Assembly: GCA_947588765.1 (NCBI GenBank)
Contig: CANPZG010000001.1
Location: 12,658 to 76,657 of the forward strand
Reading direction: 5' to 3'
DNA length: 64,000 nucleotides
DNA from: an uncultured Bacilli bacterium
GTDB taxonomy: Bacteria; Bacillota_I; Bacilli_A; RF39; UBA660
The notes under the pieces are model-generated. The model searched no databases. It was not told the DNA's origin and saw only the letters and a program-made list of their open reading frames with translations. How positions within the stretch are numbered: the stretch's first letter is position 1; each line of letters starts with the position of its first letter. Shown one piece after another: positions 2,299 through 59,724 of this stretch. The position numbers were made by a program, and so were the translations under genes.

Positions 2299-2354
2299 TT
2301 TGCAAAATAAAATTTTTTGTGCTAATATACTTTCCAGCAAGAAAGGGACATTAC

Positions 2355-2735: not shown

Positions 2736-2815
2736 AAATTATCTTTTTTTTGATTTAAATTTGCTATTAAAAATATAATGTAGTATAATTGACTTACCAA
2801 AGAGGTGAAATTAAT

Positions 2816-3304
2816 TTGAAAAAATTAAAAGAAATTTGGCAAAAGAATAGGGTGTTAATAGTGTTGATAGGCATTTTAATTGCTTGTTTTATTGCCATTT
2901 GTATAGTTGTTGTTACTTATTTTTTTGGAGGTAGTGATACAGTCTATGGTGATAGATTAAAAGATATCGATAAACATCCAATTACGGAAGATTTTAAAAA
3001 TAAATATATTTCATCTTTAGAAAATGATGATGCTATTGAAGAAGTAACTTTTAATAGTAAAGGAAGAGTTATTTATATTAGAATAAAATATGTTGATGAT
3101 TTTTCTTTGGTAGAAGCAGAAAGTAAAGCTACTGCATCTTTAACAACTTTTGAAGAAAATACTTTAAATTATTATGATCTTAATTTTACAATTGTTAGTG
3201 ATGAAACTGATAATAGTGATGGCTTTACTCTAATGGGAGCAAAGAATGTTAATAGTGATACCGTAGTTTGGAATAATAATACCCAAGCAGAAAGTGAAGA
3301 ATAA
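2816..3304 (+). CDS. small membrane-anchored protein (one TM, extracytoplasmic domain)
   Basis: TTG start after AGAGGTG. One N-terminal TM helix. Its stop overlaps the start of the next gene (ATAATG). Confidence 0.4.
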   Translation: MKKLKEIWQKNRVLIVLIGILIACFIAICIVVVTYFFGGSDTVYGDRLKDIDKHPITEDFKNKYISSLENDDAIEEVTFNSKGRVIYIRIKYVDDFSLVEAESKATASLTTFEENTLNYYDLNFTIVSDETDNSDGFTLMGAKNVNSDTVVWNNNTQAESEE

Positions 3305-5298
3305 TGAAAAAGAAGAAAAATATATTAATTATTATCTTAAGTGTTATTGTCTTAATAATTATTGGAGTTGTTCTTTTTTTCATCTTAAATGATAAAAATA
3401 AATTAACTGTTCAAGAAAGAGCTTGGATGGATGATAATGTTAGTACAATTCAAAATATAAATATTATTAATGATGCAAATATTTTTGGTAAAAATGCCGA
3501 AGGAGTTTTTTATGATTTCTTAAAAGACTTTTCGGTAGATTATAGTATGCAAATAAATCCAATTACTTTTACAGATGGAACAAAAGATGGTTTAACATTT
3601 ACTTTAAAAAATCAAATAAGTGATAATGATGTTGTTTTTTATACGGACCATTATGTTTTATTAAGTAAGAAAGATGCTAATATCAATAGTTATAGTGATT
3701 TAAATGGCAAGGTTATTGGAATAAATGGTACAAATTATAATTATGTTCATCCATATTTAGCTAATGTAACTTTAAATAGTTATGAAAATGATGAAGCTTT
3801 ATTTGCTTCCCTTGATACGGAAACGGAATTTGTAGTTGTCCCAATGATTCAATATTTAGATACAATTTTAACTAATGATTATTTTGTTAATTTCCATCTT
3901 GGGGATATCAAAAGTTATTATGTTATGCAAAGTGCTAATGATACTTTAAGTGTTGTTTTAAATAAATATTATCAAAAATGGCAAGGTAATTTAGCTAAAT
4001 ATTTTAATAGTCATGAATTTGATTTATTCGTGGATAGCTTAAAATTAACTGAAGCTGAAATAGATAAATTACAAAGTGTAGTTCATAATTATGGTTTTGT
4101 AAATACTAGTCCCTATGAGGTTATTATGGGTGGTGAATATGGTGGTATTGTGGCCGTTTATTTAAGTCATTTTAGTGATTTTTCGAATATTGATTTTAAA
4201 TTTGTTAAATATAAAGATAAAAACCAATTTAATGATGCTATTAACAATAATGAAGTAGAAATGTATTTCAATTATTATAATACCCAAAATGATAGTAAAT
4301 CAGTGAAGGGTCCAAATATTTCTTATGTTATTGCATCACTAAAGGATAATAATGAAGTAGTTAATTCTGTTAATTCCTTGATTAATAAAAATGTTTATGT
4401 GGAAAATAATAGTAAACTACATGAATATTTAAAAACAATAAATGGTATAAACATTGTACCTTACGAAAAGCTAAAAGAAGTTAAGAAGAATAAAGATAAT
4501 AATTACTTAGTAATTGATGAAAATATTTTTGAATATAATAAAGAAGATTTATTAAGTAAATATGATAATAGATATGTTGGTAATATAAATAATAATTATG
4601 AATTTAGAATAAATAATAATGATGTTTTAGCAAGACTTTTTGGTAGTTACATTAAAACATTAGATACTCAAGAAATGGAAATATTAGGTTTAGAAAATCA
4701 TTATGATACCGTTAAAGCTGGTTCTATTATGAGTAAAATTGCCACCTATATAATTTATTTATTAATCATTGTTATTGTAATTACTTTAATCGTTATTAGA
4801 AAAAGTAAAAAAATAAAAATAGCCAGAAGAATTAAAAAAGATGATAAACTTAAATTTATCGATCAATTAACTAGTTTAAAGAATCGTAATTATTTAAGTG
4901 AAAATATTAGTATTTGGAATAATAATACAATTTATCCTCAAGCAATCATCGTAATTGATTTAAATAAAGTTCAAGAAATAAATGATATTTATGGTTATGA
5001 AGAAGGGGATAAACAAATTCAAGCTGCAGCGAATGCTTTAATTAAAACGCAATTAGATAATAGCGAAATTATGCGGACTGATGGTAATGAATTTGTTATT
5101 TACATTGTTGGTTATAGTGAAAAACAAATATCTAATTACATGCATAAATTAAATAAAGAATTAAGTAAATTACCTTATGAATTTGGAGCGGAATTTGGTC
5201 GCAGTATGATTATGGATAATATAAAAACTGTAGAAGATGCGATGAATGAAGCTGTCGAAGATATGAAAAAACAAAAGGTTGAAACTAATGAAAAATAA
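3304..5298 (+). CDS. membrane sensor protein with degenerate GGDEF domain
   Basis: N-terminal TM, ~450-aa extracytoplasmic domain, second TM, then a GGDEF-like fold. The signature reads DGNEF rather than GG[DE]EF (IIVIDLNKVQEINDIYGYEEGD...TDGNEFVIYIVGYS). Confidence 0.55.
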   Translation: MKKKKNILIIILSVIVLIIIGVVLFFILNDKNKLTVQERAWMDDNVSTIQNINIINDANIFGKNAEGVFYDFLKDFSVDYSMQINPITFTDGTKDGLTFTLKNQISDNDVVFYTDHYVLLSKKDANINSYSDLNGKVIGINGTNYNYVHPYLANVTLNSYENDEALFASLDTETEFVVVPMIQYLDTILTNDYFVNFHLGDIKSYYVMQSANDTLSVVLNKYYQKWQGNLAKYFNSHEFDLFVDSLKLTEAEIDKLQSVVHNYGFVNTSPYEVIMGGEYGGIVAVYLSHFSDFSNIDFKFVKYKDKNQFNDAINNNEVEMYFNYYNTQNDSKSVKGPNISYVIASLKDNNEVVNSVNSLINKNVYVENNSKLHEYLKTINGINIVPYEKLKEVKKNKDNNYLVIDENIFEYNKEDLLSKYDNRYVGNINNNYEFRINNNDVLARLFGSYIKTLDTQEMEILGLENHYDTVKAGSIMSKIATYIIYLLIIVIVITLIVIRKSKKIKIARRIKKDDKLKFIDQLTSLKNRNYLSENISIWNNNTIYPQAIIVIDLNKVQEINDIYGYEEGDKQIQAAANALIKTQLDNSEIMRTDGNEFVIYIVGYSEKQISNYMHKLNKELSKLPYEFGAEFGRSMIMDNIKTVEDAMNEAVEDMKKQKVETNEK

Positions 5299-6136
5299 GA
5301 TAAAAACTAGTTTAACAGACTTTTGGCATAATTTTAAAATAGCTATTTCTAAACCAGAAATGGCTATTTTACCAGGACATCTAGCATTTTTCTTCGTTTT
5401 AGCCATCGTTCCAATATTTACTTTAATTACTTATGGAGCAGCCTTCTTAAATTTATCAACGGATACCATTTTTAATTTTTTAACAACAATATTTTCTGAA
5501 GATATTGCTAATATGTTATTAGGTAGTTCATCTTTAGGGGGAACTACTTTAATAATTACCATAGTTGTTGGGCTGGTTATGGCCTCAAATGGAGCAGCCT
5601 CAATTATTACAACAACTAATACCATTTATGGTGTAAAAAATAATAGTTTTATTCGAAGAAGAATAAAAGCAATAATTATGACTTTCTTCTTAATCTTACT
5701 ATTTCTATTCATGTTAATAATCCCAGTATTTGGTAATAAAATAATTGAAATAGTTAAATTTGCGAGTATAAATCCTAATTTAATTGAAGATATTACGGTA
5801 GTAATTAACTTTTTACAAGGACCTATTACTTGGCTAGTAATTTACTTCATTATTAAATTTATTTATACGATAGCGCCAAATAAAATAGTTAAAAGTAAAA
5901 ATGTTGGTTATGGAGCCTTATTTACTAGTATTGGTTGGATAATATCAACTTATATTTATTCCTTCTATATATCTCATTTAGCTAATTATTCCGCCTTTTA
6001 TGGTGGACTTGCTAATATCATTATTTTAATGTTATGGTTCTATTTATTAGCCTTTATTTTTACTATAGGTATAGCCTTAAACTATAGAAGAGAAGAATTG
6101 GAAAAAACTAGTACTTTAAAAATAAAAAAATCGTAA
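5288..6136 (+). CDS. YihY/BrkB family membrane protein
   Basis: Six predicted TM helices; LPGHLAFFFVLAIVPIFTLI...GGLANIIILMLWFYL resembles COG1295. Confidence 0.6.
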   Translation: MKNKIKTSLTDFWHNFKIAISKPEMAILPGHLAFFFVLAIVPIFTLITYGAAFLNLSTDTIFNFLTTIFSEDIANMLLGSSSLGGTTLIITIVVGLVMASNGAASIITTTNTIYGVKNNSFIRRRIKAIIMTFFLILLFLFMLIIPVFGNKIIEIVKFASINPNLIEDITVVINFLQGPITWLVIYFIIKFIYTIAPNKIVKSKNVGYGALFTSIGWIISTYIYSFYISHLANYSAFYGGLANIIILMLWFYLLAFIFTIGIALNYRREELEKTSTLKIKKS

Positions 6137-6461: not shown

Positions 6462-7853
6462 ATGAAAAAAACAAAAATAACAATAGTTTTAATATTTATA
6501 GTAGCTATATGCGCCATAATTATAGGAATTAGTAATAAGACTAAAACTTTTAAAGAAATAAATATCAAAGATGAAAACCAAGACAATACTTTAGCTATAA
6601 TGATAAGAGATGAAAAAGATAAAGAATATAAAAAACAAAATCGCTTAGAGTTTCCTAATAAAGATAATTATAGATATATTGGGTCAACATGTACTGATAA
6701 TGAAGGTAATATATTAAATGGTAAAGAATATATTAGATATGATGAAGATACAAATAAAGCATACTTAACAACAAACAAAGCAGTACATTGCTCGATGTTT
6801 TTTGCAGATGCTCTACCAGCTTCAGAACAAATAGTAAAATATTCAAGTAAATATTTAGAACCAGAACAAGATGTAACAGATAGAGGAGATGTATTAAGAA
6901 GATTTCAAGGAACAGTAGAGAAAAATGCTGATGGAACAATAGATGAAACAAATGATGTAAATAACTATGTATGTTTTGGAACAACTGATAAAGAAGAATG
7001 TGTAAGTAATACTGACAAATATATGTATCGTATTATTGGCTATGCTATTGATGATGATATGGATTCATTAACCTATAAAGGTCAATTAAAACTTATCAAA
7101 AAAGAAGCTTTAGAAAAAACAATGGTGTGGAATGATGACAGGTATACATATGTACCATATTATCAAACAATTCCTTATTTATATATAAATGGTGAGGGAT
7201 ATTTGAATAATGACTACTATGTTTTAGATTCTTGGAAAGATGAAATTGTTAATCATAATTGGACGTATGGTAATAATAATTGGACTTACGATAATAAAAC
7301 GTTATTTCAATATGAAAGCGCCAAATTAAATTATGTTTTCCAATATCTAAATGTAGAATCAGGTAACAAAACTCGTAAAGTTGAAAATACTGCTCAAAGT
7401 AAATACGCTGGACAAAATGTTCGTTATGATGAAATAAGTAAAAAATGGGATATAATATTATCAAAAGTAGGAATGTTGTATTTAACTGATAATTCTCTTG
7501 CTGCTGGGAAAGAAACAAATGGATGTTATAGTAGCGATACAAATGAAGAAAATAAAAATATTTGTCAAAAGGGATGGCTCAATTTAAATAATAATGATAC
7601 TAATATTTTAAGTTTTGATTCTAAAAATCCATTATCTAATATGGAACATATAGTTAACATCGTTGGTTATGCACCAAAGTGGGGTTATTATGACAATTTT
7701 GCTTTAAGATATGATGGACTAATAATTAGTGCGAATGTAGAAGGTTTAATTAGTGTTGTCCGTCCTGTCATTTATATAACTCAAGACATATTTTTAATGG
7801 GAACTGGAACTCAATCTGATCCTTATAGAATAATATCTCCCGATTTAAATTAA
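6462..7853 (+). CDS. secreted/membrane-anchored Cys-rich protein
   Basis: N-terminal signal/TM (KITIVLIFIVAICAIIIG), about 12 Cys, Asn-rich. No family recognised. Confidence 0.45.
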   Translation: MKKTKITIVLIFIVAICAIIIGISNKTKTFKEINIKDENQDNTLAIMIRDEKDKEYKKQNRLEFPNKDNYRYIGSTCTDNEGNILNGKEYIRYDEDTNKAYLTTNKAVHCSMFFADALPASEQIVKYSSKYLEPEQDVTDRGDVLRRFQGTVEKNADGTIDETNDVNNYVCFGTTDKEECVSNTDKYMYRIIGYAIDDDMDSLTYKGQLKLIKKEALEKTMVWNDDRYTYVPYYQTIPYLYINGEGYLNNDYYVLDSWKDEIVNHNWTYGNNNWTYDNKTLFQYESAKLNYVFQYLNVESGNKTRKVENTAQSKYAGQNVRYDEISKKWDIILSKVGMLYLTDNSLAAGKETNGCYSSDTNEENKNICQKGWLNLNNNDTNILSFDSKNPLSNMEHIVNIVGYAPKWGYYDNFALRYDGLIISANVEGLISVVRPVIYITQDIFLMGTGTQSDPYRIISPDLN

Positions 7854-7937
7854 AAGCTTTATAACTTTAGTTATAGAGTTTTTTCTTGGAAAGAAATATG
7901 ATTTATTATATAATATATTTAGAAAGAAGGCTTTAAT

Positions 7938-9245
7938 ATGTTTGAATATATGGGAGATAGATTATCTAATGCAATAAAAAATATTCGAGGTATGGGTAAA
8001 ATAACCGAAGAAAATATTCAAGATGCTATGCGAGAAATAAGAATAGCTTTACTTGAAGCTGATGTTAACTATCAAGTTGTTAAAGAATTTATTGCTGCAG
8101 TTAAAGAAAAAGCTTTAGAGGCTGAAGTTGGTAAAAGTTTAAAACCTGATGAAGTATTTATTAAAATAGTTAAAGATGAATTAGTTGCCCTTTTAGGAGG
8201 GGACTATGTTCCATTGGAAGTAACGAAAAATCCTACTATTTTAATGTTAGTGGGTCTACAAGGTAGTGGTAAAACTACTACAGCAGGAAAATTAGCTAAT
8301 TTTTTAAGAAAAAAACATAGTAAAAAGCCTTTGTTAGTAGCATGTGATATTTATAGACCGGCAGCTATCGAACAATTAGAAACAATTGGGAAAGAATTAA
8401 ATGTTCCAGTATTTAAAAAAGATAAGGCTAAAGTTACAGAAATAGTTAAAGATGCTTTAGAATACGCTAAAGAAGAAAAATGCGATTATATTATTATCGA
8501 TACGGCAGGTCGTTTACAAATTGATGAAGAATTAATGCAAGAATTAAAAGATATTGATGAATTAGTTAATCCTCATGAAAAAATACTAGTTATTGATGGA
8601 TCGATGGGACAAGATGCCATTAATGTTATCACCGGATTTAATAATACTTTAAATTTAACGGGATGTATTTTAACTAAATTAGATGGTAATACTAAAGGTG
8701 GAGTAGCATTATCTGTTAGACATTTAACTCATATTCCTATTAAGTTCGTTGGGGATAGCGAAAAATTAGATGGTTTAAGAGAATTTTATCCTGAAAGAAT
8801 GGCTGAAAGAATACTTGATATGGGCGATATATTAAGCATTGTAGAAAAAGTTGAAGATGTATTTGATGAAGAAGAAGCTAAAAATCAAGCCATTAAGATG
8901 AAAAAAGGAAAATATGATTTAGAGGATTTTTTAACTAACTTAAAGCAAATAAAAAAACTTGGACCTTTAGAAAATATTTTAAAAATGTTACCTCAAGCAA
9001 GAAAAATGGGATTAAATAATATTAATGTGGATCAAAAGCAATTTTCCCGTTTAGAAGCTATTATTAGTTCCATGACTTTAGAAGAAAGAAGAAAACCCGA
9101 AATAATAAAAGCTAGTCGTAAAATACGGATTGCTAAAGGTAGTGGAACAACTGTTGAAGAAGTAAATCGATTACTAAATCAATTTAATATGATGAAAGAT
9201 ATGATGAAAAAAATGTCAAGTGGTAATTTTAAGATGCCTTTTTAA
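7938..9245 (+). CDS. ffh: signal recognition particle protein Ffh
   Basis: N-domain, G-domain (GLQGSGKTTTAGKLA, DTAGR) and Met-rich M-domain at the C-terminus. Confidence 0.95.
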   Translation: MFEYMGDRLSNAIKNIRGMGKITEENIQDAMREIRIALLEADVNYQVVKEFIAAVKEKALEAEVGKSLKPDEVFIKIVKDELVALLGGDYVPLEVTKNPTILMLVGLQGSGKTTTAGKLANFLRKKHSKKPLLVACDIYRPAAIEQLETIGKELNVPVFKKDKAKVTEIVKDALEYAKEEKCDYIIIDTAGRLQIDEELMQELKDIDELVNPHEKILVIDGSMGQDAINVITGFNNTLNLTGCILTKLDGNTKGGVALSVRHLTHIPIKFVGDSEKLDGLREFYPERMAERILDMGDILSIVEKVEDVFDEEEAKNQAIKMKKGKYDLEDFLTNLKQIKKLGPLENILKMLPQARKMGLNNINVDQKQFSRLEAIISSMTLEERRKPEIIKASRKIRIAKGSGTTVEEVNRLLNQFNMMKDMMKKMSSGNFKMPF

Positions 9246-9296
9246 CAAAAAAAGCTTTTATCTCTATAAAAATAATGTTATAATTGTGATGATAGG

Positions 9297-10046
9297 GTGA
9301 TACGATTGAAAAAGATAGAAAGAAGTACCGTATTATTTACACTTTCTCTTTTAATAATTTTAACGCTTTCTATATTAGTAAGTAGGTTTTCTTATGCTTA
9401 TCTTGAATCAGGACCTGTAGCACCCGGAGAAACTAAAGGACAAGTTGTATCTAAAGAAGACCAAATGATATTTACTAAAGGTGATAATATAAGTTTAAAA
9501 TTTGATTCGGCATCATTTACAGAAAGTCAATCTGCTACAACCAAACCATCTGTTACATTAATAGCCAATGAACAAACTAAAAGTGCGGTAGGAATATATA
9601 CTTTAGGTATAAAAATAGAGAAAAATACATTTCAAAAAACGCAAGAAAATAATCCTGAATTAATCTTGACTGTAAAAGATATAACAGGTTCTAAAGAAAT
9701 AACCGCTGAAAATTTACCTGAAAGTGTTAAAAATTCATTGAATTATGTAACAGTTACGGATAGTAAGCAAAAACAAATATCTGGTTTTGATATAACCGGT
9801 AAAACAGGCGTTTTTAACTTTATTGAAAATAATCAAATGACATCAACTAATTATAATGATGGTGTTAAACATGAATTTGAATTTACAATTACTTTTGTTC
9901 ATTATGATTTTGATCAATCTATAAATGAGACAGCTACTTTAAGTGCTAATGCTTATATTTCGGATGTTGCGGAAACGGCAACTAGTGCGTCAAGTATAAA
10001 TTTTGATGAAATAGTAGAAAGTGATTTAACTACTAATTTAGAATAA
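9297..10046 (+). CDS. secreted protein with TasA/camelysin-like N-terminal signal motif
   Basis: GTG start. TM helix followed by SRFSYAYLESG, reminiscent of the SipW-cognate FAYFSD signal of TasA/CalY. The rest is unassignable. Confidence 0.4.
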   Translation: MIRLKKIERSTVLFTLSLLIILTLSILVSRFSYAYLESGPVAPGETKGQVVSKEDQMIFTKGDNISLKFDSASFTESQSATTKPSVTLIANEQTKSAVGIYTLGIKIEKNTFQKTQENNPELILTVKDITGSKEITAENLPESVKNSLNYVTVTDSKQKQISGFDITGKTGVFNFIENNQMTSTNYNDGVKHEFEFTITFVHYDFDQSINETATLSANAYISDVAETATSASSINFDEIVESDLTTNLE

Positions 10047-10052
10047 TGAGTG

Positions 10053-10412
10053 TTAATCACTTTTTTTAATGTTTTCTAATTCTTCTTGCATTCTTTTGAC
10101 AGCTTTAATTAACATATCAACTTCGCTTCTTTGATTTTGATTACTTTTATTTTCGTTATTATCAGTGTAAACTGAACCACCACTTTTAGTTTTTTTACTA
10201 TTAATATTTATATTAGAATTTTCTATTCTTGATTCAATTAATTGTTGTTGGGCGGCATGAGTTAAAACATACTGACCGACCATAATAATCCAGTTACCAA
10301 TGGAGTTTTGTTCATTAGCATTAAAATCGCCAACACAAGCATATCCAACAGCCACAGCAATCAAAGTAAAGACATGAGGATTAGTGTTAGGAGGAAAATT
10401 TTCATTATCCAT
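10053..10412 (-). CDS. small hypothetical membrane protein
   Basis: 119-aa ORF with a hydrophobic N-terminal half and an Asn-rich tail. The RBS is plausible. Confidence 0.35.
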   Translation of the reverse strand: MDNENFPPNTNPHVFTLIAVAVGYACVGDFNANEQNSIGNWIIMVGQYVLTHAAQQQLIESRIENSNININSKKTKSGGSVYTDNNENKSNQNQRSEVDMLIKAVKRMQEELENIKKSD

Positions 10413-10501
10413 AGTTTTCCTCCTTCATTTAATTTTATTAATAAAAACACTAAATTTGCATTTTTCCCCATTTTAATATATAATTTTATTAGGTGAAAGC
10501 A

Positions 10502-11083
10502 ATGGAAATAAATAAAGTTAATGAACCAATTATTGCAGTGAGACAAAGTCAATACCCAACAGATGGTAAAAACGAATTTTTACTTGTAGGTCGAAGCAAT
10601 GTTGGTAAAAGTAGTTTTATTAATACCTTAATTGAACGGAAGAACTTTGCTCGGACTAGTAGCAAACCGGGAAAAACCCAAACTTTAAATTTTTATTTAG
10701 TTAATGATTTATTCTATTTAGTGGATGTTCCCGGTTATGGTTATGCAGCTGTAAGTCAAGATCGGCAAAAGAAATTTGGTTTAATGATTGAAGAATATTT
10801 AAAAAATCGACCTAATTTAAAACAAGTTTTTATGTTAATTGATTATCGTCATAAACCAACTGAAGATGATACCTTAATGTATGAATTTTTAAAATACTAC
10901 AATTTAGATATTACAATTGTCGCAACTAAATATGATAAAATTAGTAAAAATAATCGGGAAAAACAAGATAAATTAATTAGAGAAACATTAAAGTGTCAAG
11001 ATGAAGAAATAATTACCTTTTCGACTATTACCAAAAAAGGTCGGAGTGAAGTTTTAGATATAATAGCAAAAAAAGTAGGTTGA
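10502..11083 (+). CDS. engB: ribosome biogenesis GTPase EngB/YsxC
   Basis: GRSNVGKSSFIN, DVPGYGY and ATKYDK G-motifs; about 195 aa. Confidence 0.9.
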   Translation: MEINKVNEPIIAVRQSQYPTDGKNEFLLVGRSNVGKSSFINTLIERKNFARTSSKPGKTQTLNFYLVNDLFYLVDVPGYGYAAVSQDRQKKFGLMIEEYLKNRPNLKQVFMLIDYRHKPTEDDTLMYEFLKYYNLDITIVATKYDKISKNNREKQDKLIRETLKCQDEEIITFSTITKKGRSEVLDIIAKKVG

Positions 11084-11087
11084 TAAA

Positions 11088-11516
11088 ATGAATGAAAAAG
11101 GGTTTACTTTAGTTGAATTACTTGCAGTTATTGTAATATTATCTCTTGTTGTAGTTATTGCGGCAACAAGTATTAATAGTAGTGTTAACACATCAAAAGA
11201 AAAAATCTTAGAAGATCGGATTAACAATATTACCACGGGAGCTATAAGTTATGTGCAAAATGGGAAAAATATTTTAAATGAAGCTGATTGTGCAGCAATT
11301 AATGCAAAACAACACACAACTTATGACCGTTGTAAAGTGTATACAGTTCAAGAATTGCTTAATTTAAAGGCTATAGAAACTAATGAAAAAGGTGGTAAAA
11401 TATATAATCCCGTAACAAATACGGAAATGAATAATGATATAGTAACGGTTTATCGTATGAATAATCGATTACATGCCCAAATAACTTGTAAAAAAAGTGA
11501 GGGAGAAAGTTGTTAG
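11088..11516 (+). CDS. type IV pilin-like / ComGC-like prepilin
   Basis: MNEKG|FTLVELLAVIVILSLVVV is a class III (prepilin) leader plus N-methylation domain. Two Cys near the C-terminus. Confidence 0.6.
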   Translation: MNEKGFTLVELLAVIVILSLVVVIAATSINSSVNTSKEKILEDRINNITTGAISYVQNGKNILNEADCAAINAKQHTTYDRCKVYTVQELLNLKAIETNEKGGKIYNPVTNTEMNNDIVTVYRMNNRLHAQITCKKSEGESC

Positions 11517-11523
11517 GTAAAAT

Positions 11524-12828
11524 ATGGAAACAGTATGTTTAATCGGAAAACCCAATGTTGGTAAAAGTAGTATTTTTAATCGCTTAATAAAAGAAAAAAA
11601 AGCGATTATTTTAGATACTCCAGGAGTTACCAGAGATAGATTATATGGAACTGTTACCTATAAAGATAAAAGTTTTCATTTAATTGATACCGGTGGTATT
11701 TTACTTGGTGATGATGATTTCGATAAAGATATTATTGCTCAAGCTGAACTTGCTATTGATGAAGCTGATATCATACTTTTTGTGGTTGATGGGATAAGTG
11801 AGATTGATGCGGCTGATATTCATGTTAAAGAATTATTACATCGCAGCCATAAAAAAGTAATTGTAGTTGTTAATAAAATCGATAATGAAGAAAGAAAAGA
11901 TAATATATATAATTTCTATGAATTAGGTTTTGAAACTATTTTACCTGTTAGTGCGGAACATAATAAAGGTTTTAAAGAATTACTTGATTTAATTACAAAA
12001 GATATGAGTAAAATTGAAGAACAAACTGATGATAGTTTAAAATTTTGTTTAATTGGTCGCCCTAATGTTGGTAAAAGTAGTTTGATTAATGCTTTACTTA
12101 ATGAAGATAGAGCTATTGTTAGTGATATCGCCGGAACAACCCGTGATGCTATTGATACCAAATTTAAATATAATGGGGAAAACTATACTGTTATTGATAC
12201 CGCGGGAATGCGAAAAAAAGGTAAAGTTTACGAACAAGTAGAAAGATATTCATTAATTCGTAGTTTAAAAGCTATTGATCGGAGTAATGTTTGTGTTATT
12301 GTCATTGATGCAAGCGAAGGTATCATTGAACACGATAAACATATTGCCCATTATGCTTTGGAAGCTGGTAAAGCTCTAGTTATCGCGGTTAATAAATGGG
12401 ATACAGTTAAAAACCCTGACTTAGAAATAAAAAAATGGCAAACCTTAATTAAAAATGAATTTCAATTTTTACCATATGTTAATGTTGTCTTCTTAAGTGC
12501 TTTAACTAAAAAAAGAATGCATACTTTAATGCCAGAAGTACTTACCGCCTATGAAAATTGGCAAAAAGAAATTAAAACATCAGTTTTAAATGATATTATA
12601 ATGGAAGCTGTAAGTATTCATGAACCACCTTCATATAAAGGTAAAAGATTAAAAATTTATTTTGTAAGTCAAACGGATAATAGACCACCAAAGTTTACTT
12701 TCCAAGTTAATAATAAAAATTTATTACATTTTTCTTATAAAAGATATTTAGAAAATAAAATAAGAGAAAATATTGATTTAACGGGAACACCAATTATCTT
12801 ACAATTTAAAAATAAAAGTGATAATTAA
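11524..12828 (+). CDS. der: ribosome-associated GTPase Der/EngA
   Basis: Two tandem G domains (GKPNVGKSS; GRPNVGKSS) plus a C-terminal KH-like domain. Confidence 0.93.
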   Translation: METVCLIGKPNVGKSSIFNRLIKEKKAIILDTPGVTRDRLYGTVTYKDKSFHLIDTGGILLGDDDFDKDIIAQAELAIDEADIILFVVDGISEIDAADIHVKELLHRSHKKVIVVVNKIDNEERKDNIYNFYELGFETILPVSAEHNKGFKELLDLITKDMSKIEEQTDDSLKFCLIGRPNVGKSSLINALLNEDRAIVSDIAGTTRDAIDTKFKYNGENYTVIDTAGMRKKGKVYEQVERYSLIRSLKAIDRSNVCVIVIDASEGIIEHDKHIAHYALEAGKALVIAVNKWDTVKNPDLEIKKWQTLIKNEFQFLPYVNVVFLSALTKKRMHTLMPEVLTAYENWQKEIKTSVLNDIIMEAVSIHEPPSYKGKRLKIYFVSQTDNRPPKFTFQVNNKNLLHFSYKRYLENKIRENIDLTGTPIILQFKNKSDN

Positions 12829-12871: not shown

Positions 12872-13114
12872 ATGAAATTTGGTGATGACTTTTTTAAAAA
12901 AGTAGAAAAGAAAACGAAAGTTGATAAAGATACTATTTTTGCTCTCGCTGACAAATTACAAAAAGGGAATATGAAAGATGAGGCCACATTAAGAGAAGTA
13001 ATAGATACTTTAAGTAAAATGACAGGTAAAAAAGTTACAAAGGAACAAAGTGATAAAATAATAGCTAAGATAGTTAATGATAAGGTTCCTAAGAATGTTG
13101 ATAAGATGTTTTAG
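12872..13114 (+). CDS. SpoVIF-like small sporulation protein (tentative)
   Basis: 80 aa. FFKKVEKKTKV...IFALADKL...LREVI...DKIIAKIVNDKVP matches the pattern I recall for SpoVIF/YjcC. Confidence 0.4.
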   Translation: MKFGDDFFKKVEKKTKVDKDTIFALADKLQKGNMKDEATLREVIDTLSKMTGKKVTKEQSDKIIAKIVNDKVPKNVDKMF

Positions 13115-13142: not shown

Positions 13143-13292
13143 AAGATTTATAAACACAATTTATATTTTTAAATAGTTTAAAATTATAAAAATTCACAAT
13201 AGGTGAAATTTCCCTGAAAATAGCCAAAAATTACCAATTTTTTAATAACAAATAACTTCAATTGTGTTAGAATTTTTATGGAGATGGTATAT

Positions 13293-14426
13293 ATGAAAGT
13301 GGCAAAATCTGTAGAAGAAGAAAGAGAAATTGCGATAGGAAATATTGGACCTAAAATTAAAAAGTTAAGAAAGAAAGCTAAAATGACTCAAAGAGCTCTA
13401 GCAGATATTGCTTGTGTTTCTAATAGAACTGTTTCAAAATGGGAAAAGGGTACAAGTTCACCAGATTATGGAGCACTAAGAGCAATGGCTAAAGTATTTG
13501 ATGTTAAAGTTTCATATTTTCTTGATGATACTACCGCGAGAAGTAAAATTAAAGTATTTATTAAAGATTTAAGTGATAAATTTAAAAAGAAAGGTGGTAA
13601 AGCATTATGTTTTATTAGCTTTATATTACTTATCGCTTATTTTGTTATAACTATAAAATCTTTCGCAGTTTATGAAATAGTTAGTAATGATAGTAATTTA
13701 ACTTTTGAATCAGGTTACTATACTAAATCTAATTTTAAAATAATTATCAATATTAATAATATTACTTATATTAGTGAAGAAGATGATAAAGATGTAATTA
13801 GTCAAAAGATAAAATTATGTACTTTAGATAATAATGAAAAAGTTTGTTTCTACGAATCAGAAAATATGGAAGATATAGATTACAAAAATTTTGTCAGTTA
13901 TAATCTAAATAGAAAAGCAGCAAGAAATTTAGAAAAAGATTTATATTTAATTGTGGAAACTATTTATAAAGACAACACTGTTAATGATTATGAAAAGAAA
14001 TTATCAATGAAGAAAATTATTGGTAGTGATAAGGTATTTTATTCTAAGAAGGATACTTATAAGGAAGAAGCGTATACTAACAATAGTTTTAAAATAAATA
14101 ATTTTATGTTAGATAATAATGGTTATATGAGAATAGAAAATACAAAAACATATTATAAAAAATTTGATAATTATATGTTGTACTTTGATTTAGATTTAAA
14201 TAAAATGTCTTATGCGATAGAACTTAAAGATGGAATTAAAAATTATAGTTATTTTTATAATCAAAATTCAATTGAATATAGTTTTAATGATATTAATGGA
14301 AATGTAATTGATAGATACTCATATTTTATTACTAATGATGAATTAGGCTGTCACAAAGGAGATTGTAAAGATTATTTAAAAGTTTATGATGAAATAATTG
14401 CAGTATTTAATAAGGCTTTTTCATAG
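13293..14426 (+). CDS. membrane-anchored XRE-family HTH transcriptional regulator
   Basis: N-terminal HTH_XRE (MTQRALADIACVSNRTVSKWEKG), one TM helix (LCFISFILLIAYFVITI), ~240-aa extracytoplasmic domain with a C-terminal GCHKGDCKDY. Confidence 0.6.
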   Translation: MKVAKSVEEEREIAIGNIGPKIKKLRKKAKMTQRALADIACVSNRTVSKWEKGTSSPDYGALRAMAKVFDVKVSYFLDDTTARSKIKVFIKDLSDKFKKKGGKALCFISFILLIAYFVITIKSFAVYEIVSNDSNLTFESGYYTKSNFKIIININNITYISEEDDKDVISQKIKLCTLDNNEKVCFYESENMEDIDYKNFVSYNLNRKAARNLEKDLYLIVETIYKDNTVNDYEKKLSMKKIIGSDKVFYSKKDTYKEEAYTNNSFKINNFMLDNNGYMRIENTKTYYKKFDNYMLYFDLDLNKMSYAIELKDGIKNYSYFYNQNSIEYSFNDINGNVIDRYSYFITNDELGCHKGDCKDYLKVYDEIIAVFNKAFS

Positions 14427-15454: not shown

Positions 15455-16933
15455 ATGGAAAAAGAACAAGTATTGTCTTCAATAGCTAAAAGAGGTAACG
15501 GAGAAATTTATCTTGGGGTAGTAGGAGCAGTTAGAACCGGTAAATCAACATTTATTAAAAGATTTATTGAAAACCTAGTTGTTCCTAATATCTCAGATGA
15601 ATATGAAAAAAAACATTGTTTAGATGAAATTCCTCAAAGTGCCACAGGAAAAACAATTATGACGACTGAACCTAAATTTGTACCATCAAATGGTGCCACA
15701 ATTAAGATCAATGAATTTTCTACCAACATTAAATTAGTTGATTGTGTAGGTTATGTTATTCCTGAAGCTACAGGATTTGAAGATGAAGACGGAAATCCTC
15801 GGATGGTTAAAAGTCCTTGGTTTGAAGATGCAATTCCTTTTGTAGAAGCCGCGGAAATTGGTACGGAAAAAGTTATCAAAGATCATTCTACAATCGGTAT
15901 TGTAGTTACTACCGATGGTTCGTTCGGTGAAATAAAAAGAGAATCTTACATCGATGCAGAACAAAAGGTTATTACCGAATTAAAAGAAATTGGTAAACCT
16001 TTTATCGTAATACTTAATAGTATTCATCCAACAAATAGTGAAACAACAGAACTAGCACGAAGTTTAAGTGAAAATTATGATGTACCAGTGATACCTATTA
16101 GTGCTGAACTCATGAATGAAAAAGAAATCATGGAAATTTTAAAGACGGCTTTATATGAATTCCCAGTTCTTGATATTCAAATAAATATTCCCGAGTGGGT
16201 GCATGTCTTACCAGCCGCGCATATTATAAAGACTCATTATATGGAAAAAATTAAAGAAAGCATCATTAGTGTTGAAAAACTTAAAGATGTTGACTTTATT
16301 TTGGACCATTTCAGTGATTCAGAATATATATCCAAAGCATACATCTCGGATTTAGATGCTGCTACTGGCATCGTTACAGTTAATTTGGAAAGTCCTGATG
16401 AATTATATACTGAAACCTTGAGATCGATTATGGGAGATGCTGCAACTACGAAGGCAGGACTATTAAAGATATTTGCGACATATCAAGAAGGTAAGGAAGA
16501 ATTAGATAATATTAAGTCAGCTTTAAAGATGGCTAAAAGTACAGGGTACGGCATAGTTTATCCAACAATTAAAGAATTGAAATTAGAAACACCGGAATTA
16601 GTTAAACAAGGTAATCGTTACGGAGTTAAACTTAAGGCTGTGGCTTCTAGTATTCATTTGGTTAAAGTTGATGTTGAATCGACATTTGAGCCAATCATTG
16701 GTAGTGAACTTCAATCAAAAGAATTAATAAATCATTTAATGAAAGATTACGAAACTGATGCTTCAAGTATTTGGAAAAGTGAAATATTTGGTCGTAGTTT
16801 AGAAGTAATCGTTCAAGAAGGAATTCAAGCAAAATTAAGTATGATGCCTGATACAACCAGATATAAATTAAAAGATACCGTAACTAAGATTGTAAATAAA
16901 GGTTCTAATACATTAATTGCAATTGTCTTTTAG
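15455..16933 (+). CDS. spoIVA: stage IV sporulation protein A (coat-assembly ATPase)
   Basis: Walker A GVVGAVRTGKSTFIKRF; full-length (492 aa) collinear resemblance to SpoIVA. Confidence 0.9.
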   Translation: MEKEQVLSSIAKRGNGEIYLGVVGAVRTGKSTFIKRFIENLVVPNISDEYEKKHCLDEIPQSATGKTIMTTEPKFVPSNGATIKINEFSTNIKLVDCVGYVIPEATGFEDEDGNPRMVKSPWFEDAIPFVEAAEIGTEKVIKDHSTIGIVVTTDGSFGEIKRESYIDAEQKVITELKEIGKPFIVILNSIHPTNSETTELARSLSENYDVPVIPISAELMNEKEIMEILKTALYEFPVLDIQINIPEWVHVLPAAHIIKTHYMEKIKESIISVEKLKDVDFILDHFSDSEYISKAYISDLDAATGIVTVNLESPDELYTETLRSIMGDAATTKAGLLKIFATYQEGKEELDNIKSALKMAKSTGYGIVYPTIKELKLETPELVKQGNRYGVKLKAVASSIHLVKVDVESTFEPIIGSELQSKELINHLMKDYETDASSIWKSEIFGRSLEVIVQEGIQAKLSMMPDTTRYKLKDTVTKIVNKGSNTLIAIVF

Positions 16934-31540: not shown

Positions 31541-31671
31541 CTTTTTAATTATACTACATTTTCAGTAAAATTAAAACATCTATTAATTTTCAGAAAACCT
31601 ATGTTGGAGTAAGCACGTATTTTTTTAAGAAACATAAATTATTAGTGAGAATACATGAAAGGGTGAAAATT

Positions 31672-32118
31672 ATGAATAACAATACAAACGAACAACAAGG
31701 CAATTGTATTAATGAAATACTTTGTGTTATCTTAGTATTACAAGAAAACGCATGTCCTGATAATTGTTTACAAACTTGTGATAGACCAGTTTTAGGTGGA
31801 GGAGCTAACTGTTTAATTTGTAATACAAGACCTGTAATGCTATATTGCTGTAGTGGAAATGGAACTCCATGGAGTATGCCAATAACTAAAGATTCAACCG
31901 AAAGTTGTGCTGGTCAAGGACAAACTGCAACTTGTTCAAATGTCTTTAGAGTAGAAAAGATAGAAGGAAATTGTTGTACTTTCCGTGTTTTGGCCGAAAA
32001 TGAAGATACAACAAGTGTTTATCCATATGTTGCAACTAATGTCTTCTTCACAATGGATTGCAGTTGCTTATGTGGCATAAGATGTTTATCAGATACTTAC
32101 GTAGATTGCCTTTGTTAA
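31672..32118 (+). CDS. CotY/CotZ-family cysteine-rich spore coat protein
   Basis: About 20 Cys. VFRVEKIEGNCCTF and DCSCLCGIRCLSDTYVD parallel B. subtilis CotY FFRVEKLCDCCA / CFCAIQCLSPELVD. Confidence 0.65.
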   Translation: MNNNTNEQQGNCINEILCVILVLQENACPDNCLQTCDRPVLGGGANCLICNTRPVMLYCCSGNGTPWSMPITKDSTESCAGQGQTATCSNVFRVEKIEGNCCTFRVLAENEDTTSVYPYVATNVFFTMDCSCLCGIRCLSDTYVDCLC

Positions 32119-56723: not shown

Positions 56724-57281
56724 TTAATATCCTTTACTTTTATAGTAGTCATATAGTTCTTTAAAGCGATTAAAATGAACTACTTCTCTTTGACGTAAAA
56801 ATAAAAGGGGACCTATAATATCTGGATCAGTTGCTAAATCAATTAAGTTTTCATAAGTAGCTCTCGCTTTTTGTTCGGCAGCCATATCTTCACTTAAATT
56901 AGCAATAGGATCACTCATTGATTCAATGTAAGCTGCGGTAAATGGCACACCATTAGCATTAGATGGATATATTCCTTTCCGATGGTCAGCATAGAATTGT
57001 TCTAATCCTGCGGCTTTTATTTCATCAATTGTGGCATTTTCCATCAATTGATTAACCATAGAACCAATCATTTCTAAATGGCCTAATTCTTCGGTCGCAA
57101 TATCATTAAGTAGGGCTTTTCCTCGAGCATCAGGCATCGTAAATTTATGAGAGAAATATCTTAAAGCCGCTGCTAGTTCGCTATTAGCTCCTCCAAATTG
57201 GGTAATAAGTAGTTTCGCCATTTTTAAATCTTTTTTCTTAATATTAATAGGGTAGTTTAAGTGTTTGACATATTTAAACAT
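56724..57281 (-). CDS. cotJC: spore coat protein CotJC (Mn-catalase/ferritin-like)
   Basis: LITQFGGANSELAAALRYF...EELGHLEM. GGAGG RBS; the start overlaps the cotJB stop (ATGTTTAA). Confidence 0.8.
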   Translation of the reverse strand: MFKYVKHLNYPINIKKKDLKMAKLLITQFGGANSELAAALRYFSHKFTMPDARGKALLNDIATEELGHLEMIGSMVNQLMENATIDEIKAAGLEQFYADHRKGIYPSNANGVPFTAAYIESMSDPIANLSEDMAAEQKARATYENLIDLATDPDIIGPLLFLRQREVVHFNRFKELYDYYKSKGY

Positions 57282-57717
57282 ATTTAGCATCCTCCCGATC
57301 ATTCCATGGCCATGGTTCATTAACCCAATTAAAGGTATTACCATCAACTTCATCAACTTGAAGAGGGCCATAAAGTTTAACGTATTCTAGTTCTTTTTCA
57401 CAAGCTTTTTCCACATATCTTTTGAATAATTGTAGAAGTTCTTCGTCATCTGGATGTAAGTCTAGGCATAAATTCAAATCATTAATGGCAAAATCATATT
57501 TCATAATTTCAAACAATAATTGATCTCTTTTAGATAAAGGTTCTATTTTGCGATAAGTATAATTTTTATATGGTTTAAATTCATCTTTATACATATTACC
57601 TCTTAGAAAACCTTCTTCGGGATTTAAAACATTAGATAATTTATTTTCTTTTAAATTATTAGAATAGTTCGAACCTAAATCAAATGTCATAAATCCAATA
57701 TTATCATCAAATAACAT
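57274..57717 (-). CDS. cotJB: spore coat protein CotJB
   Basis: LLFEIMKYDFAINDLNLCLDLHPDDEELLQLF...YGPL is the CotJB family pattern. Confidence 0.7.
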   Translation of the reverse strand: MLFDDNIGFMTFDLGSNYSNNLKENKLSNVLNPEEGFLRGNMYKDEFKPYKNYTYRKIEPLSKRDQLLFEIMKYDFAINDLNLCLDLHPDDEELLQLFKRYVEKACEKELEYVKLYGPLQVDEVDGNTFNWVNEPWPWNDREDAKYV

Positions 57718-57876
57718 AATTTTTTCCTCCTGTTATATAGTAGTTATTTTTCCTAAATTGGTATAGGTTAATGAACTAGAAAAAGCATAATTGTCAATAA
57801 TTGTAATTTTTCGTGATTTAAATTGACATTATAGCTATTATCATTTAAAATTAATTATAGGATAGGAAAGATACAT

Positions 57877-58281
57877 ATGAAAAATAGTTTACATAGTATT
57901 ACAGAAAAAATTAAAAATTTTTTAGTTCCTCATAAAATAATTGCGGGAATTTTTGTAGTTCTAGTTTTATTATTAGGTATTACCTTCTTGAGATCTTTTG
58001 CTTATTATGAAAAAAGTGTACCAGATGTAATTGTTAAAAGTAAAGTAGGAAATATTCCAGATATTGAAATTAGAATAATGCAAGCAGATGGTAATGCTGC
58101 TGGGGGATATAAACAAATTACGGAAGTTCCTGATACAAGTAGCTATCATTATAATGAGACAAAAAGCCATTGTGCTAATAAATCAACATTAACATTTAAC
58201 AAAGAATCTAATAATTTTACAATTGAAGCTGAAGGAACAGATTTATGTTTTGCTTATTTTGATAATGGAAAAACTCAATAA
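57877..58281 (+). CDS. small secreted protein with TasA/camelysin-like N-terminal signal motif
   Basis: TM helix then LRSFAYYEKSVPD, similar to FAYFSDKE of CalY/TasA. Two Cys. Confidence 0.4.
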   Translation: MKNSLHSITEKIKNFLVPHKIIAGIFVVLVLLLGITFLRSFAYYEKSVPDVIVKSKVGNIPDIEIRIMQADGNAAGGYKQITEVPDTSSYHYNETKSHCANKSTLTFNKESNNFTIEAEGTDLCFAYFDNGKTQ

Positions 58282-58300
58282 AGAGTAGAAAAGGAAATTT

Positions 58301-58579
58301 ATGTATTGTAAAAAATGTGGTAATCCTTTACCTAATGAAGGTTTTACTTGTAAGTTTTGTGGTGCCATGATGGAAAGTAATCAAATTGCTCAACAAAAGA
58401 ATAATTTACAAGAACGAAAATGGCAAACGAGAACAAAAAGTGAACTATATGGGATGGAAAAAATAAATTATCAAAAAGAAGAACAAGAAAATAAGAAAAA
58501 TTTTCCTTTAGGAGTATTTTTAATAGTCGGAGTACTTATAATTTTAATTGTAATCGCCATACTAATTAATATGAATTAG
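58301..58579 (+). CDS. zinc-ribbon membrane protein
   Basis: CKKCG...CKFCG ribbon and a C-terminal TM helix. Confidence 0.45.
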   Translation: MYCKKCGNPLPNEGFTCKFCGAMMESNQIAQQKNNLQERKWQTRTKSELYGMEKINYQKEEQENKKNFPLGVFLIVGVLIILIVIAILINMN

Positions 58580-58582
58580 TAG

Positions 58583-59101
58583 GTGATTTTTTTGTTATTA
58601 GTATGTATAAAAATATTTTTAGCGAGGATAGTGGATGTAACATTAGGTAGTATTAGAACAATATTAATGGTAAAGGGAAAAAGTATCCCAGCAAGTATTA
58701 TTGCTTTTTTAGAAGTCTTTATTTGGTTTATTATTGCGAAAGAAGCATTAAATACGCCATATAATTCTTTATTAATTCCCGTATTTTATGCTGGAGGTTA
58801 TGCGACAGGAACCTTACTTGGAACATATTTATCTAATACTTATGTAAGTGGGATTGTTGGCTTGCAAGTTATTACCAAAACTAATAATAAAAAGATGATT
58901 GAAAGAATTAGAAAAAATGGTTATGGAGTCTCAATTGTTAACTTAAAAAATGCCTATGAAGGGCATAAAAAAGAGATGTTAATTATCCAAGTAAATAAAA
59001 AAAGTTTAAAGGAAATTACTAATTTAATTAAAGAATATGACCATAATGCTTTTATAATTGCTAATGAAACAAAATATGTCCAAAATGGTTTGATAAAATA
59101 A
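58583..59101 (+). CDS. UPF0316/DUF2179 family membrane protein
   Basis: TLGSIRTILMVKGK...EVFIWFI N-terminal pattern and a C-terminal DUF2179-like domain. Confidence 0.5.
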   Translation: MIFLLLVCIKIFLARIVDVTLGSIRTILMVKGKSIPASIIAFLEVFIWFIIAKEALNTPYNSLLIPVFYAGGYATGTLLGTYLSNTYVSGIVGLQVITKTNNKKMIERIRKNGYGVSIVNLKNAYEGHKKEMLIIQVNKKSLKEITNLIKEYDHNAFIIANETKYVQNGLIK

Positions 59102-59185
59102 GACAAAAAAATTAAAAAAATTTTATATAAAATATTGACTAACAAAAATTTTTATAGTAATATTTAATCATAGGGAGTGTTGTCA

Positions 59186-59695
59186 ATGAGACAAAATATG
59201 ATATTAAAAGATTCACACGGGTTTACATTAGTTGAATTGTTAGCCGTAATCGTTGTCTTAGCAATAGTAATGTTACTAGCCGTACAAGCTATATTACCTC
59301 AAATGACATTAGCAAGAAAAAATGCTTTAGCAATAGAAGCCAATAGTGCAATTGAAGCAGCCCAAAGTTATGTAGTAACCAAAGCTTTGACTGAAGGCTT
59401 GGTTGTTGGAAAAGACGATGGATTATGTGTTAAAATTTCAACATTAGCAGATGGATTTTATAAAGTAGATACTACTAAATATAGTGGATATGTAAAAATA
59501 ACGCAAGCACCTAAAGCTCCTGGTTCTACAAGTACTAGCACTAATTACTTATATCAAGTTTATTTACAAAATGGTCAATATATGGCAAATGGTAAAGGTT
59601 TAGAAGATAATAAACAAGTTAACATCACTGGTGATCAAATAGATGAATATGATGCATCTTCTTTTAATGGTACACCACCTGAAGGATGTAAATAA
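59186..59695 (+). CDS. type IV pilin-like protein
   Basis: Leader ...KDSHG|FTLVELLAVIVVLAIVMLLAV (prepilin N-methylation domain). Cys pair (LCVK...EGCK). Confidence 0.6.
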   Translation: MRQNMILKDSHGFTLVELLAVIVVLAIVMLLAVQAILPQMTLARKNALAIEANSAIEAAQSYVVTKALTEGLVVGKDDGLCVKISTLADGFYKVDTTKYSGYVKITQAPKAPGSTSTSTNYLYQVYLQNGQYMANGKGLEDNKQVNITGDQIDEYDASSFNGTPPEGCK

Positions 59696-59700
59696 TAATT

Positions 59701-59724
59701 AAGTGCGAAAGCACTTTTTTTTCT
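59701..59724 (+). terminator. rho-independent terminator
   Basis: AAGTGC-GAAA-GCACTT plus T8. Confidence 0.6.

Follow-up and report, generated by a model that had tools for sequence, protein, structure and literature searches.

Two modular protein families of uncultured Bacilli share an N-terminal module that resembles SipW-type signals

Introduction

The signal peptides of TasA, CalY and TapA, which are captured by the model TIGR04088 as SipW-cognate signals, have a basic n-region, a long hydrophobic core and an end of the form T/S-aromatic-A-aromatic-aromatic. Processing of TasA requires the endoplasmic reticulum (ER)-type signal peptidase SipW, and the residues at sites P3 to P4′ of TasA (TWA-AFND), notably the aromatic ones at sites P2 and P2′, hinder the P-type peptidase LepB (PMC10269814). 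A dedicated signal peptidase and a DUF5305 protein form a conserved processing pair in archaeal and bacterial donor-strand fimbriae (PMC11821415, PMC12337348). Here we describe an N-terminal module of the same general build as the SipW-cognate signals, carried by two proteins encoded in a 64-kb stretch of DNA from an uncultured Bacilli bacterium (contig CANPZG010000001.1; the whole stretch is referred to below as the window). The first protein, P1, is encoded at 57877-58281 (+) and the second, P2, at 9297-10046 (+); to keep proteins and cleavage-site positions apart, the latter are always written as site P3 to site P2′.

The window has a G+C content of 27%, and its housekeeping genes are interspersed with sporulation genes. 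A preliminary description of this DNA had reported near-identical TasA/camelysin-like stretches in P1 and P2, each protein beside a type IV pilin-like gene, and had proposed that they are subunits of fibres or spore-surface appendages. We compared the window with about 0.77 Mb of related DNA, in loci labelled L001 upward, and asked how far the likeness to SipW-cognate signals and the pairing with pilin genes extend.

Results and discussion

A specific N-terminal module is shared by the P1 and P2 families

Both genes are present as open reading frames (ORFs), and each product has a transmembrane (TM) helix followed by an aromatic motif. P1 and P2 alike begin with a Lys-rich segment, continue into a hydrophobic helix of about 20 residues and carry an aromatic pentapeptide at the outer end of that helix. 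In P1, an ORF of 134 residues, the basic n-region (residues 1-20) and the hydrophobic helix (21-38) lead into the motif S40-F-A-Y-Y44, which lies in the stretch RSFAYYEKS (residues 39-47) and is encoded at 57994-58008 (+). A conserved linker, VIVKSKVGNIPD, and a single small beta domain of disulfide type (residues 61-131, with Cys99 and Cys124) follow. The P2 ORF has 249 codons, with gene callers and homologs placing the start at ATG 9306 (246 residues). Here the n-region and helix end in S32-Y-A-Y-L36, within RFSYAYLES (residues 30-38; pentapeptide codons at 9390-9404 (+)), and are followed by a linker, a beta sandwich of about 180 residues and a disordered acidic tail.

Taken as a pair, the two sequences are not very alike. 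BLASTP of P1 against P2 gives a non-significant E value of 2.8 and the best register has four identities in six positions (SFAYYE / SYAYLE), so the earlier wording of near-identical stretches was too strong; neither protein has a significant BLASTP match among the ORFs of the window. The motif becomes convincing only once relatives are considered. At the helix end, the pentapeptide [ST]-[YF]-[ASG]-[YF]-[YFL] is present in 72 of 77 ORFs of the P1 and P2 families with an N-terminal TM helix, and in none of 97 distinct ORFs from outside the families that also begin with a TM helix, both counts being taken over the related DNA. A hidden Markov model (HMM) built from 56 P1-family N-termini only, referred to below as the module HMM, places P1- and P2-family ORFs at all of ranks 1-56 and reaches P2-family N-termini at E values of 6e-8 to 6e-4, with the window's own P2 at 0.005. 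Aligned profile to profile with hhalign, the two families match at E 1.4e-4 (probability 52%), and the match is limited to the TM helix and the motif.

Position by position, the families follow closely similar rules. Among 54 P1-family N-termini the core is [ST]-[YF]-[A>S>G]-[YF]-[YF], with S37/T15 at site P3, Y41/F10 at site P2, A39/S10/G5 at site P1, Y32/F17 at site P1′ and Y44/F10 at site P2′. In the P2 family it is T/S-[YF]-[A>S]-[YF]-[FL], with T47/S5, Y33/F19, A45/S7, Y46/F6 and F35/L17 at the same five sites. Most of the best P1-family matches carry SYAYYQ, SYAFFQ, SFAFFQ, TYAFYK or the like after the hydrophobic stretch, and then I-[IV]-G-G-x-V-G; P2-family N-termini read ...LIALVVGATFAYFKAQGG or ...LLIGKFTYSYLAPT. 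In both families the motif persists down to about 25-35% identity.

Could the likeness have arisen by chance? The genome is AT-rich and its proteins correspondingly rich in F, Y, K, N and I, so two unrelated membrane proteins might each happen to have aromatic residues after a TM helix. The poor pairwise score and the value of only 0.005 for the window's P2 against the module HMM would fit this, as would the ORF at 13278-14426, which has KSFAVYE after an internal TM helix and no detectable relation to either family. Chance leaves unexplained, however, why the motif is conserved to such low identity in both families, why it is missing from all 97 background ORFs and why a profile made from one family detects the other at E values down to 6e-8. 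We regard chance as already disfavoured and give it very little credence. The 72/77 and 0/97 counts, the cross-detection by the module HMM and the hhalign result show that the shared motif is real and specific rather than a by-product of AT-rich composition.

Two other ORFs of the window have a similar sequence beside a TM helix. The ORF at 2789-3304 (+), of 171 residues, has a TM helix and then VVVTYFFGGSD; it is the best match to the module HMM from outside the families (E 1e-3) and may represent the module in degenerate form. The ORF at 13278-14426 (+) encodes an HTH_3 (XRE) domain, a TM helix followed by KSFAVYEIVSNDSNLTFESG, and an outside domain of about 250 residues. We found no support for its carrying the module: the module HMM gives it E 640, and none of the retrieved proteins is related to it. 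Its motif may be a coincidence, or the protein may be a regulator that is tethered to the membrane and contains a peptidase site.

The motif follows the pattern of a SipW-type cleavage site

For comparison we rebuilt an alignment of the CalY family from database sequences. The CalY-family site reads T-[YF]-A-[YF]-F-S-D, and over its five-residue core it shows the pattern that the motif has in both window families, where the hydrophobic core likewise ends in T/S, an aromatic residue, A, a second aromatic residue and F/Y. When each family was aligned with the CalY profile by hhalign, the best local alignment lay exactly motif on motif. The small residues at the would-be sites P3 and P1 coincide with those of TasA (TWA↓AF) and CalY (TFA↓YF), and they are found in 54 of 54 P1-family and 52 of 52 P2-family sequences, a constancy that is due in part to how the sequences were selected. 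As in TasA and CalY, the segment after the motif, which would be the mature N-terminus, is conserved (I-[IV]-G-G-x-V-G in the P1 family), yet in the model of the P1 monomer its predicted local distance difference test score (pLDDT) falls under 50. There are also differences. P1 and P2 lack the Gly-Gly-Gly before the motif and the S-D or N-D after it that SipW-cognate signals have, the n-regions of the P1 family, at 20-45 residues, are far longer than those of TasA and CalY, and no sipW gene adjoins.

Our tentative explanation, to which we assign somewhat less than an even chance, is that the module is a SipW-type signal cut by an ER-type peptidase, borne by new modular families of surface proteins and missed by TIGR04088. 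P1 and P2 would then be exported surface proteins of a single spore-forming, uncultured Bacilli bacterium, and the module would act as a Sec signal peptide. The cut would separate the small residue from the aromatic pair that follows it, SFA↓YY after Ala42 in P1 and SYA↓YL after Ala34 in P2, and the enzyme would be a SipW/TafD-like signal peptidase of the ER/archaeal type. Cleavage is favoured because the would-be sites P3 and P1 always hold small residues, as the signal-peptidase rule demands. An ER-type enzyme is suggested because the site follows the CalY/TasA pattern (T-F/Y/W-A ↓ Y/A-F), and because aromatic residues at sites P2, P1′ and P2′ are reported to hinder the P-type peptidase. The cut would free the mature protein with the conserved segment, unstructured in the monomer, as its new N-terminus, and we speculate that this segment could serve as a donor strand or as a strand that binds an anchor.

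Several results weigh against cleavage by such an enzyme. Alignment probabilities to the CalY profile were low (0.9% and 7%), and the module profile gave CalY N-termini scores no higher than those of ordinary TM proteins. TIGR04088 matches neither P1 nor P2, and within the families it gave sub-threshold hits to 1 of 25 P2-family members (E 0.54) and 2 of 56 P1-family N-termini (best E 0.054). The comparison with SipW-cognate signals in the preliminary description thus holds for the core pattern, which equals that of CalY and TasA, and not for the model built on those signals, whose cut-off is never reached. In the window, regular-expression and phmmer searches for signal peptidases of the S26/S24 type found none, and in about 70 family loci (about 0.7 Mb) none adjoins the family gene; within 10 kb of the family genes of 75 loci the sole peptidase is that of locus L047, 9 kb from a P2-family gene. 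AlphaFold2 (AF2) runs the N-terminal helix through the motif in both proteins (residues 20-46 of P1 and 9-37 of P2), which is what an anchor that stays uncleaved would show. At about 18-23 residues the hydrophobic stretch is long, and an Arg or Lys stands 1-2 residues before the motif of P1 and P2, which is unusual for the c-region of a signal peptide.

These features suit the main rival explanation, in which the module is an uncleaved signal-anchor. It would be a type II membrane anchor whose pentapeptide forms an interfacial aromatic belt fixing the end of the helix, and the proteins would be tethered to the cell or forespore membrane with the conserved linker as a stalk. The continuous AF2 helix, the length of the hydrophobic stretch with its flanking Arg and Lys, the lack of a dedicated peptidase adjoining any family gene and the failure to reach the TIGR04088 cut-off all agree with it, as do the many relatives with a P1 domain, and the ORF at 6462-7853, in which a plain TM helix without the motif takes the place of the module. 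An aromatic belt leaves unexplained the strictly small residues at sites P3 and P1 (strict partly by selection), the absence of the motif from all 97 other ORFs with an N-terminal TM helix, and the identity with the pattern of a proven SipW site. We consider an uncleaved anchor possible, though doubtful. If it is the right answer, the pentapeptide amounts to a commonplace signature of a family of proteins tethered to the membrane. If instead the module is a SipW-type signal, the substrates of ER-type peptidases in Firmicutes would be a far wider and more varied set than the TasA/CalY-type matrix proteins, and current models such as TIGR04088 would be overlooking the module. A pentapeptide at the end of a signal helix would in that case offer a handle on unannotated surface or spore-surface proteins of uncultured gut Bacilli, and the zinc-ribbon and UPF0316 proteins encoded beside P1 would become nominees as partners of the P1 family.

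A related locus encodes an ER-type signal peptidase

Locus L047 (26.5% G+C) contains a P2-family gene and, on the other strand, a three-gene operon at 7893-11432 (-). One operon gene encodes a signal peptidase I of the ER/archaeal type, which matches TIGR02228 at 105 bits (cut-off 52, E 3e-30) and has a long N-terminal extension of multiple TM helices, another a DUF5305 protein (PF17231, E 4e-17), and another an ALK_LTK_GRD protein of 437 residues whose N-terminus is a TM helix followed by TSYGYAALNTELSISGEAYV. By these matches, this lineage does possess an ER-type signal peptidase, a point in favour of cleavage of the module by such an enzyme. The set of peptidase, DUF5305 and cargo genes is like that of donor-strand fimbriae (the tafi, ABP and TasA class, with TafD/SipW and DUF5305/TafG). 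The operon is the counterpart in bacteria of the TafD/TafG pair of archaea, with a cargo that is not TasA and that begins with a TM helix and then SYGYA. Unlike in the tafi/TasA class, the domains of the cargo are not TafA- or TasA-like, and unlike donor-strand fimbria loci, neither locus of the window has a peptidase or DUF5305 gene beside P1 or P2. A further point against linking this peptidase to the module is that the N-terminus of the cargo resembles the module by eye only, at 1.5 bits against the module HMM. The GRD head of the cargo is one that also terminates long members of the P1 family. Elsewhere in this locus, the ORF at 5029-5664 has KTFSFAYPNN after a TM helix.

The mature proteins are not relatives of TasA and belong to modular families

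Beyond the signal-peptide end, the likeness to TasA and CalY stops. Neither P1 nor P2 could be assigned to a Pfam or NCBIfam family. Peptidase_M73 (PF12389), which true CalY proteins carry, gave no match at E <= 1 to P1, P2 or 25 P2-family members (27 sequences together). The AF2 model of P2 (pLDDT 78) has strands between residues 45 and 222, and that of P1 (pLDDT 69) has a mature part consisting of a domain of about 70 residues with six strands between 63 and 130, preceded by residues 42-60 with pLDDT below 50. Against the PDB, Foldseek retrieved for P2 generic beta-sandwiches only (TM-score <= 0.27), with no TasA among the top 50, and for P1 nothing below E 0.9; the models were searched with their N-terminal helix, and their pLDDT values apply here too. 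The P2 model gave generic or no matches to viral structures, and both family profiles searched against PDB sequences returned TM-like noise only. The mature parts of P1 and P2 are unrelated to each other and, since neither PF12389 nor Foldseek finds a TasA match, the likeness to TasA/CalY is limited to the end of the signal peptide. A place in the TasA/CalY family is not supported for either protein, given predicted folds that are unlike one another and structure searches that brought up TasA for neither.

Both families are large. A first scan of metagenomes with the P1 alignment gave no matches, and a narrower family alignment run against a genome collection led to three contigs of metagenome-assembled genomes of rabbit-gut "uncultured Bacilli". 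P1 has four close homologs, whose profile retrieves 415 representative proteins at E <= 1e-3. Many P1-family proteins have 200-760 residues and some up to 2042, with 2-11 tandem P1 beta domains, which makes P1 at 134 residues the minimal form, next to relatives of 506-762 residues. For P2 we gathered 28 homologs and 61 metagenome loci. The two are mix-and-match families that share the module as an N-terminus, and longer members add tandem P1, DUF6273 or ALK/LTK glycine-rich heads.

A modular relative of this kind is encoded in the window itself, at 6462-7853 (+). Its 463 residues comprise the plain TM helix mentioned above, a P1-like beta domain and a DUF6273-like domain ("NNYVCFG...YMYRIIGY...LKLIKK") that is common to long members of the P2 family; an A2 profile matches residues 163-275. 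In BLASTP it matches the P1-family representatives P0149 (E 1e-7) and P0123 (E 7e-7) as well as the C-terminal regions of P0010, P0011 and P0021 (E 6e-6 to 8e-5), and through these ties to P1-family representatives and to the C-termini of long P2-family proteins it bridges both families. In locus L016, P2-family genes alternate with plain-TM P1-domain genes in one cluster.

Four relatives of P1 (P0033, P0036, P0039 and P0042) have a C-terminal ALK_LTK_GRD glycine-rich domain (PF12810, E 1e-34). In locus L076, two P1-family genes that end in this domain lie in tandem at 1136-5809, behind cotJB-cotJC.

Pilin genes are neighbors of P1 and P2 by local gene order

The preliminary description was right that a pilin-like gene lies near each protein. 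The genes at 59186-59695 (+) and 11088-11516 (+) match PF07963 at 32 and 30.7 bits (cut-off 21.2) and TIGR02532 at 27.1 and 28 bits (cut-off 16.3), and by these models their products are bona fide class III signal proteins, with the sites HG↓FTLVELL and KG↓FTLVELL. They share the G↓FTLVE signal with the type IV (Com-like) pilins and minor pilins of Gram-positive bacteria. P1 and P2 themselves have no N_methyl or TIGR02532 match and no G-F-x-x-x-E. Unlike type IV pilins, they lack Gly at -1, Phe at +1 and Glu at +5, and their motif comes after the helix rather than before it.

In the first gene, the leader MRQNMILKDSHG is followed by FTLVELLAVIVVL, and the protein has Cys84 and Cys171; the start lies at ATG 59186, with AGGGAG 8 nt upstream, and the mechanical ORF begins at GTG 59177. 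The second reads MNEKG and then FTLVELLAVIVIL and lies between engB (10493-11083) and der (11524-12828). A pilin gene wedged between two essential GTPase genes is an odd arrangement, and across 10493-12828 the genes are separated by gaps of 4-7 nt or have overlapping stop and start codons.

How constant is the pairing? A block that runs from a P2 homolog through a small minus-strand ORF, engB and a pilin gene to der is found in about four lineages, at identities as low as 27-38%. We saw engB-pilin-der directly in the window, L001-3, L023 (11958-14307) and L072 (3927-6249); in L015 and L019-24 a pilin of 151 residues lies downstream of the P2 homolog at matching spacing, and there the order is inferred. 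In L061 a pilin gene lies about 380 bp downstream of the P2-family gene, without engB. In locus L013 (9655-14311 (+)), with which L034 (19388-20602) is grouped, a P2-family gene is directly followed by three consecutive pilin-like genes. The trio of L013 encodes proteins of 507 residues (GFAFVE), 280 residues (KGFISVTV, with a weak DUF6273 match) and 191 residues (RGSTLLE, with an N_methyl match), and comEA and comEC follow a few kb downstream. In L014 the P2-family gene is directly followed by a first pilin-like gene, where the contig ends. For the majority of P2-family genes, however, a strict regular expression, GFTL[IV]E, finds no pilin within 10 kb; it is valid for canonical pilins only (the divergent L013 genes escaped it). 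On the P1 side, a pilin lies downstream of the UPF0316 gene only in the closest relatives, L006-8 (64% identity). At 37-40% identity the site of the pilin is taken by clpB or another P1-domain gene, and the zinc-ribbon and UPF0316 genes are retained.

These data bear on the proposal that P1 and P2 are TasA/camelysin-like subunits of fibres or spore appendages that work with type IV pilins and are processed by SipW-type and prepilin-type peptidases. The match of the core motif to CalY/TasA fits it, as do the conserved P2-engB-pilin-der order, the pilin of L061 without engB and the pilin-like genes after the P2-family genes of L013 and L014. It would also account for relatives in which a P1 or DUF6273 domain stands behind a pilin-like N-terminus (KNGFISTS... 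or KGFISVTV), and for the promoter- and terminator-like sites that bracket P1 through pilin with cotJ genes nearby (see below). Against it stand the lack of any Peptidase_M73 match in 27 sequences, the Foldseek results and the different folds of P1 and P2. The pilin is missing beside the P1 orthologs at 37-40% identity and beside most P2-family genes, and neither pilus assembly genes nor a prepilin peptidase were found among the window ORFs examined (by regular expression, and by Pfam on 18 selected ORFs). The "KNGFIS..." N-termini, which we had considered as recognised minor pilins, are matched by no model and are pilin-like by eye only. We think the proposal improbable. The pilin genes are neighbors by conserved local order, in some lineages only, and a functional pairing with P1 or P2 is not supported.

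A bolder version of the ER-type cleavage hypothesis would join the module, the modular families and the pilin-like N-termini. In it the module represents an unmodelled class of ER-type signal peptide (SipW/TafD with DUF5305) that marks a modular surface repertoire of low-GC gut Bacilli, comprising tandem P1 domains, the P2 sandwich, DUF6273 and ALK/LTK-GRD. Through the freed, aromatic-led strand the proteins would attach or polymerise in donor-strand fashion at the surface of the cell or spore, and the same cargo would alternatively be delivered behind type IV pilin-like signals. As a joint claim we find this rather unlikely.

Constant neighbors at the P1 locus

P1 is the first of four closely spaced genes on the plus strand. 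The second, at 58301-58579 (+), encodes a 92-residue protein with N-terminal CxxC...CxxC, a C-terminal TM helix and weak zinc-ribbon matches, an architecture that fits TcaA-like zinc-ribbon/TM proteins. The third, at 58583-59101 (+), encodes a UPF0316 membrane protein with DUF5698 and DUF2179 in that order (PF18955, E 7e-15; PF10035, E 5e-13). It scores 119 bits against NF003191, under the equivalog cut-off of that model, and its architecture fits UPF0316 proteins of the B. subtilis YebE type. These domain matches confirm the zinc-ribbon membrane protein and the UPF0316 protein reported earlier; the pilin-like gene at 59186-59695 is the fourth.

The trio of P1, zinc-ribbon and UPF0316 genes is conserved in at least four further lineages. 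A zinc-ribbon gene directly follows the P1 homolog in L006-8, L009, L010 and L011, and in L080 (106 residues) and L076 (90 residues) a small gene at that place was matched by position and size only. UPF0316 is retained behind the zinc-ribbon gene in L006-8, L009-11 and L080. Since the pilin is limited to the closest relatives and these two genes are kept, the zinc-ribbon and UPF0316 proteins are the constant partners of P1. A link of either to P1-family proteins did not turn up in literature searches, which were aimed at other topics. Divergent from P1 lie the spore-coat genes cotJC (Mn-catalase-like) and cotJB, at 56724-57717 (-), identified by Pfam CotJB and Mn_catalase matches on the identical arrangement of L006-8; cotJB/cotJC are found near P1-family genes in four lineages (L006-8, L010, L011 and L076). 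P1 probably works with the zinc-ribbon/TM protein and the UPF0316 protein in a cotJ-linked, possibly spore-surface context.

The best sigma-70-like promoter of the region (TTGACA-17-TAAAAT, 11/12) lies at 57823-57851 (+), 26 nt upstream of the P1 start, and a terminator-like hairpin with a T-run lies at 59701-59716 (+), 6 nt past the pilin stop; it is the only such hairpin on the plus strand of this locus. Both are consensus matches only. Together they possibly bound a four-gene unit of P1, zinc-ribbon, UPF0316 and pilin genes, and a second, weaker promoter-like site at 59135-59163 could drive the pilin alone.

Other features of the window

Besides cotJC/cotJB, the sporulation set of the window comprises spoIVA at 15455-16933 (+), a SpoVIF-like gene at 12872-13114 (+) and a CotZ-like gene at 31645-32118 (+). 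At the P2 locus the order is ORF 6462-7853, ffh, P2, a minus-strand ORF, engB, the pilin-like gene and der. The minus-strand ORF, at 10053-10412 (-) between P2 and engB, encodes a conserved protein of 119 residues ("NFPPNTNPH...GNWIIMVGQYVLTHAAQQQLIESRIEN"). It has no Pfam match, and a counterpart lies at the same place in L023 and L072.

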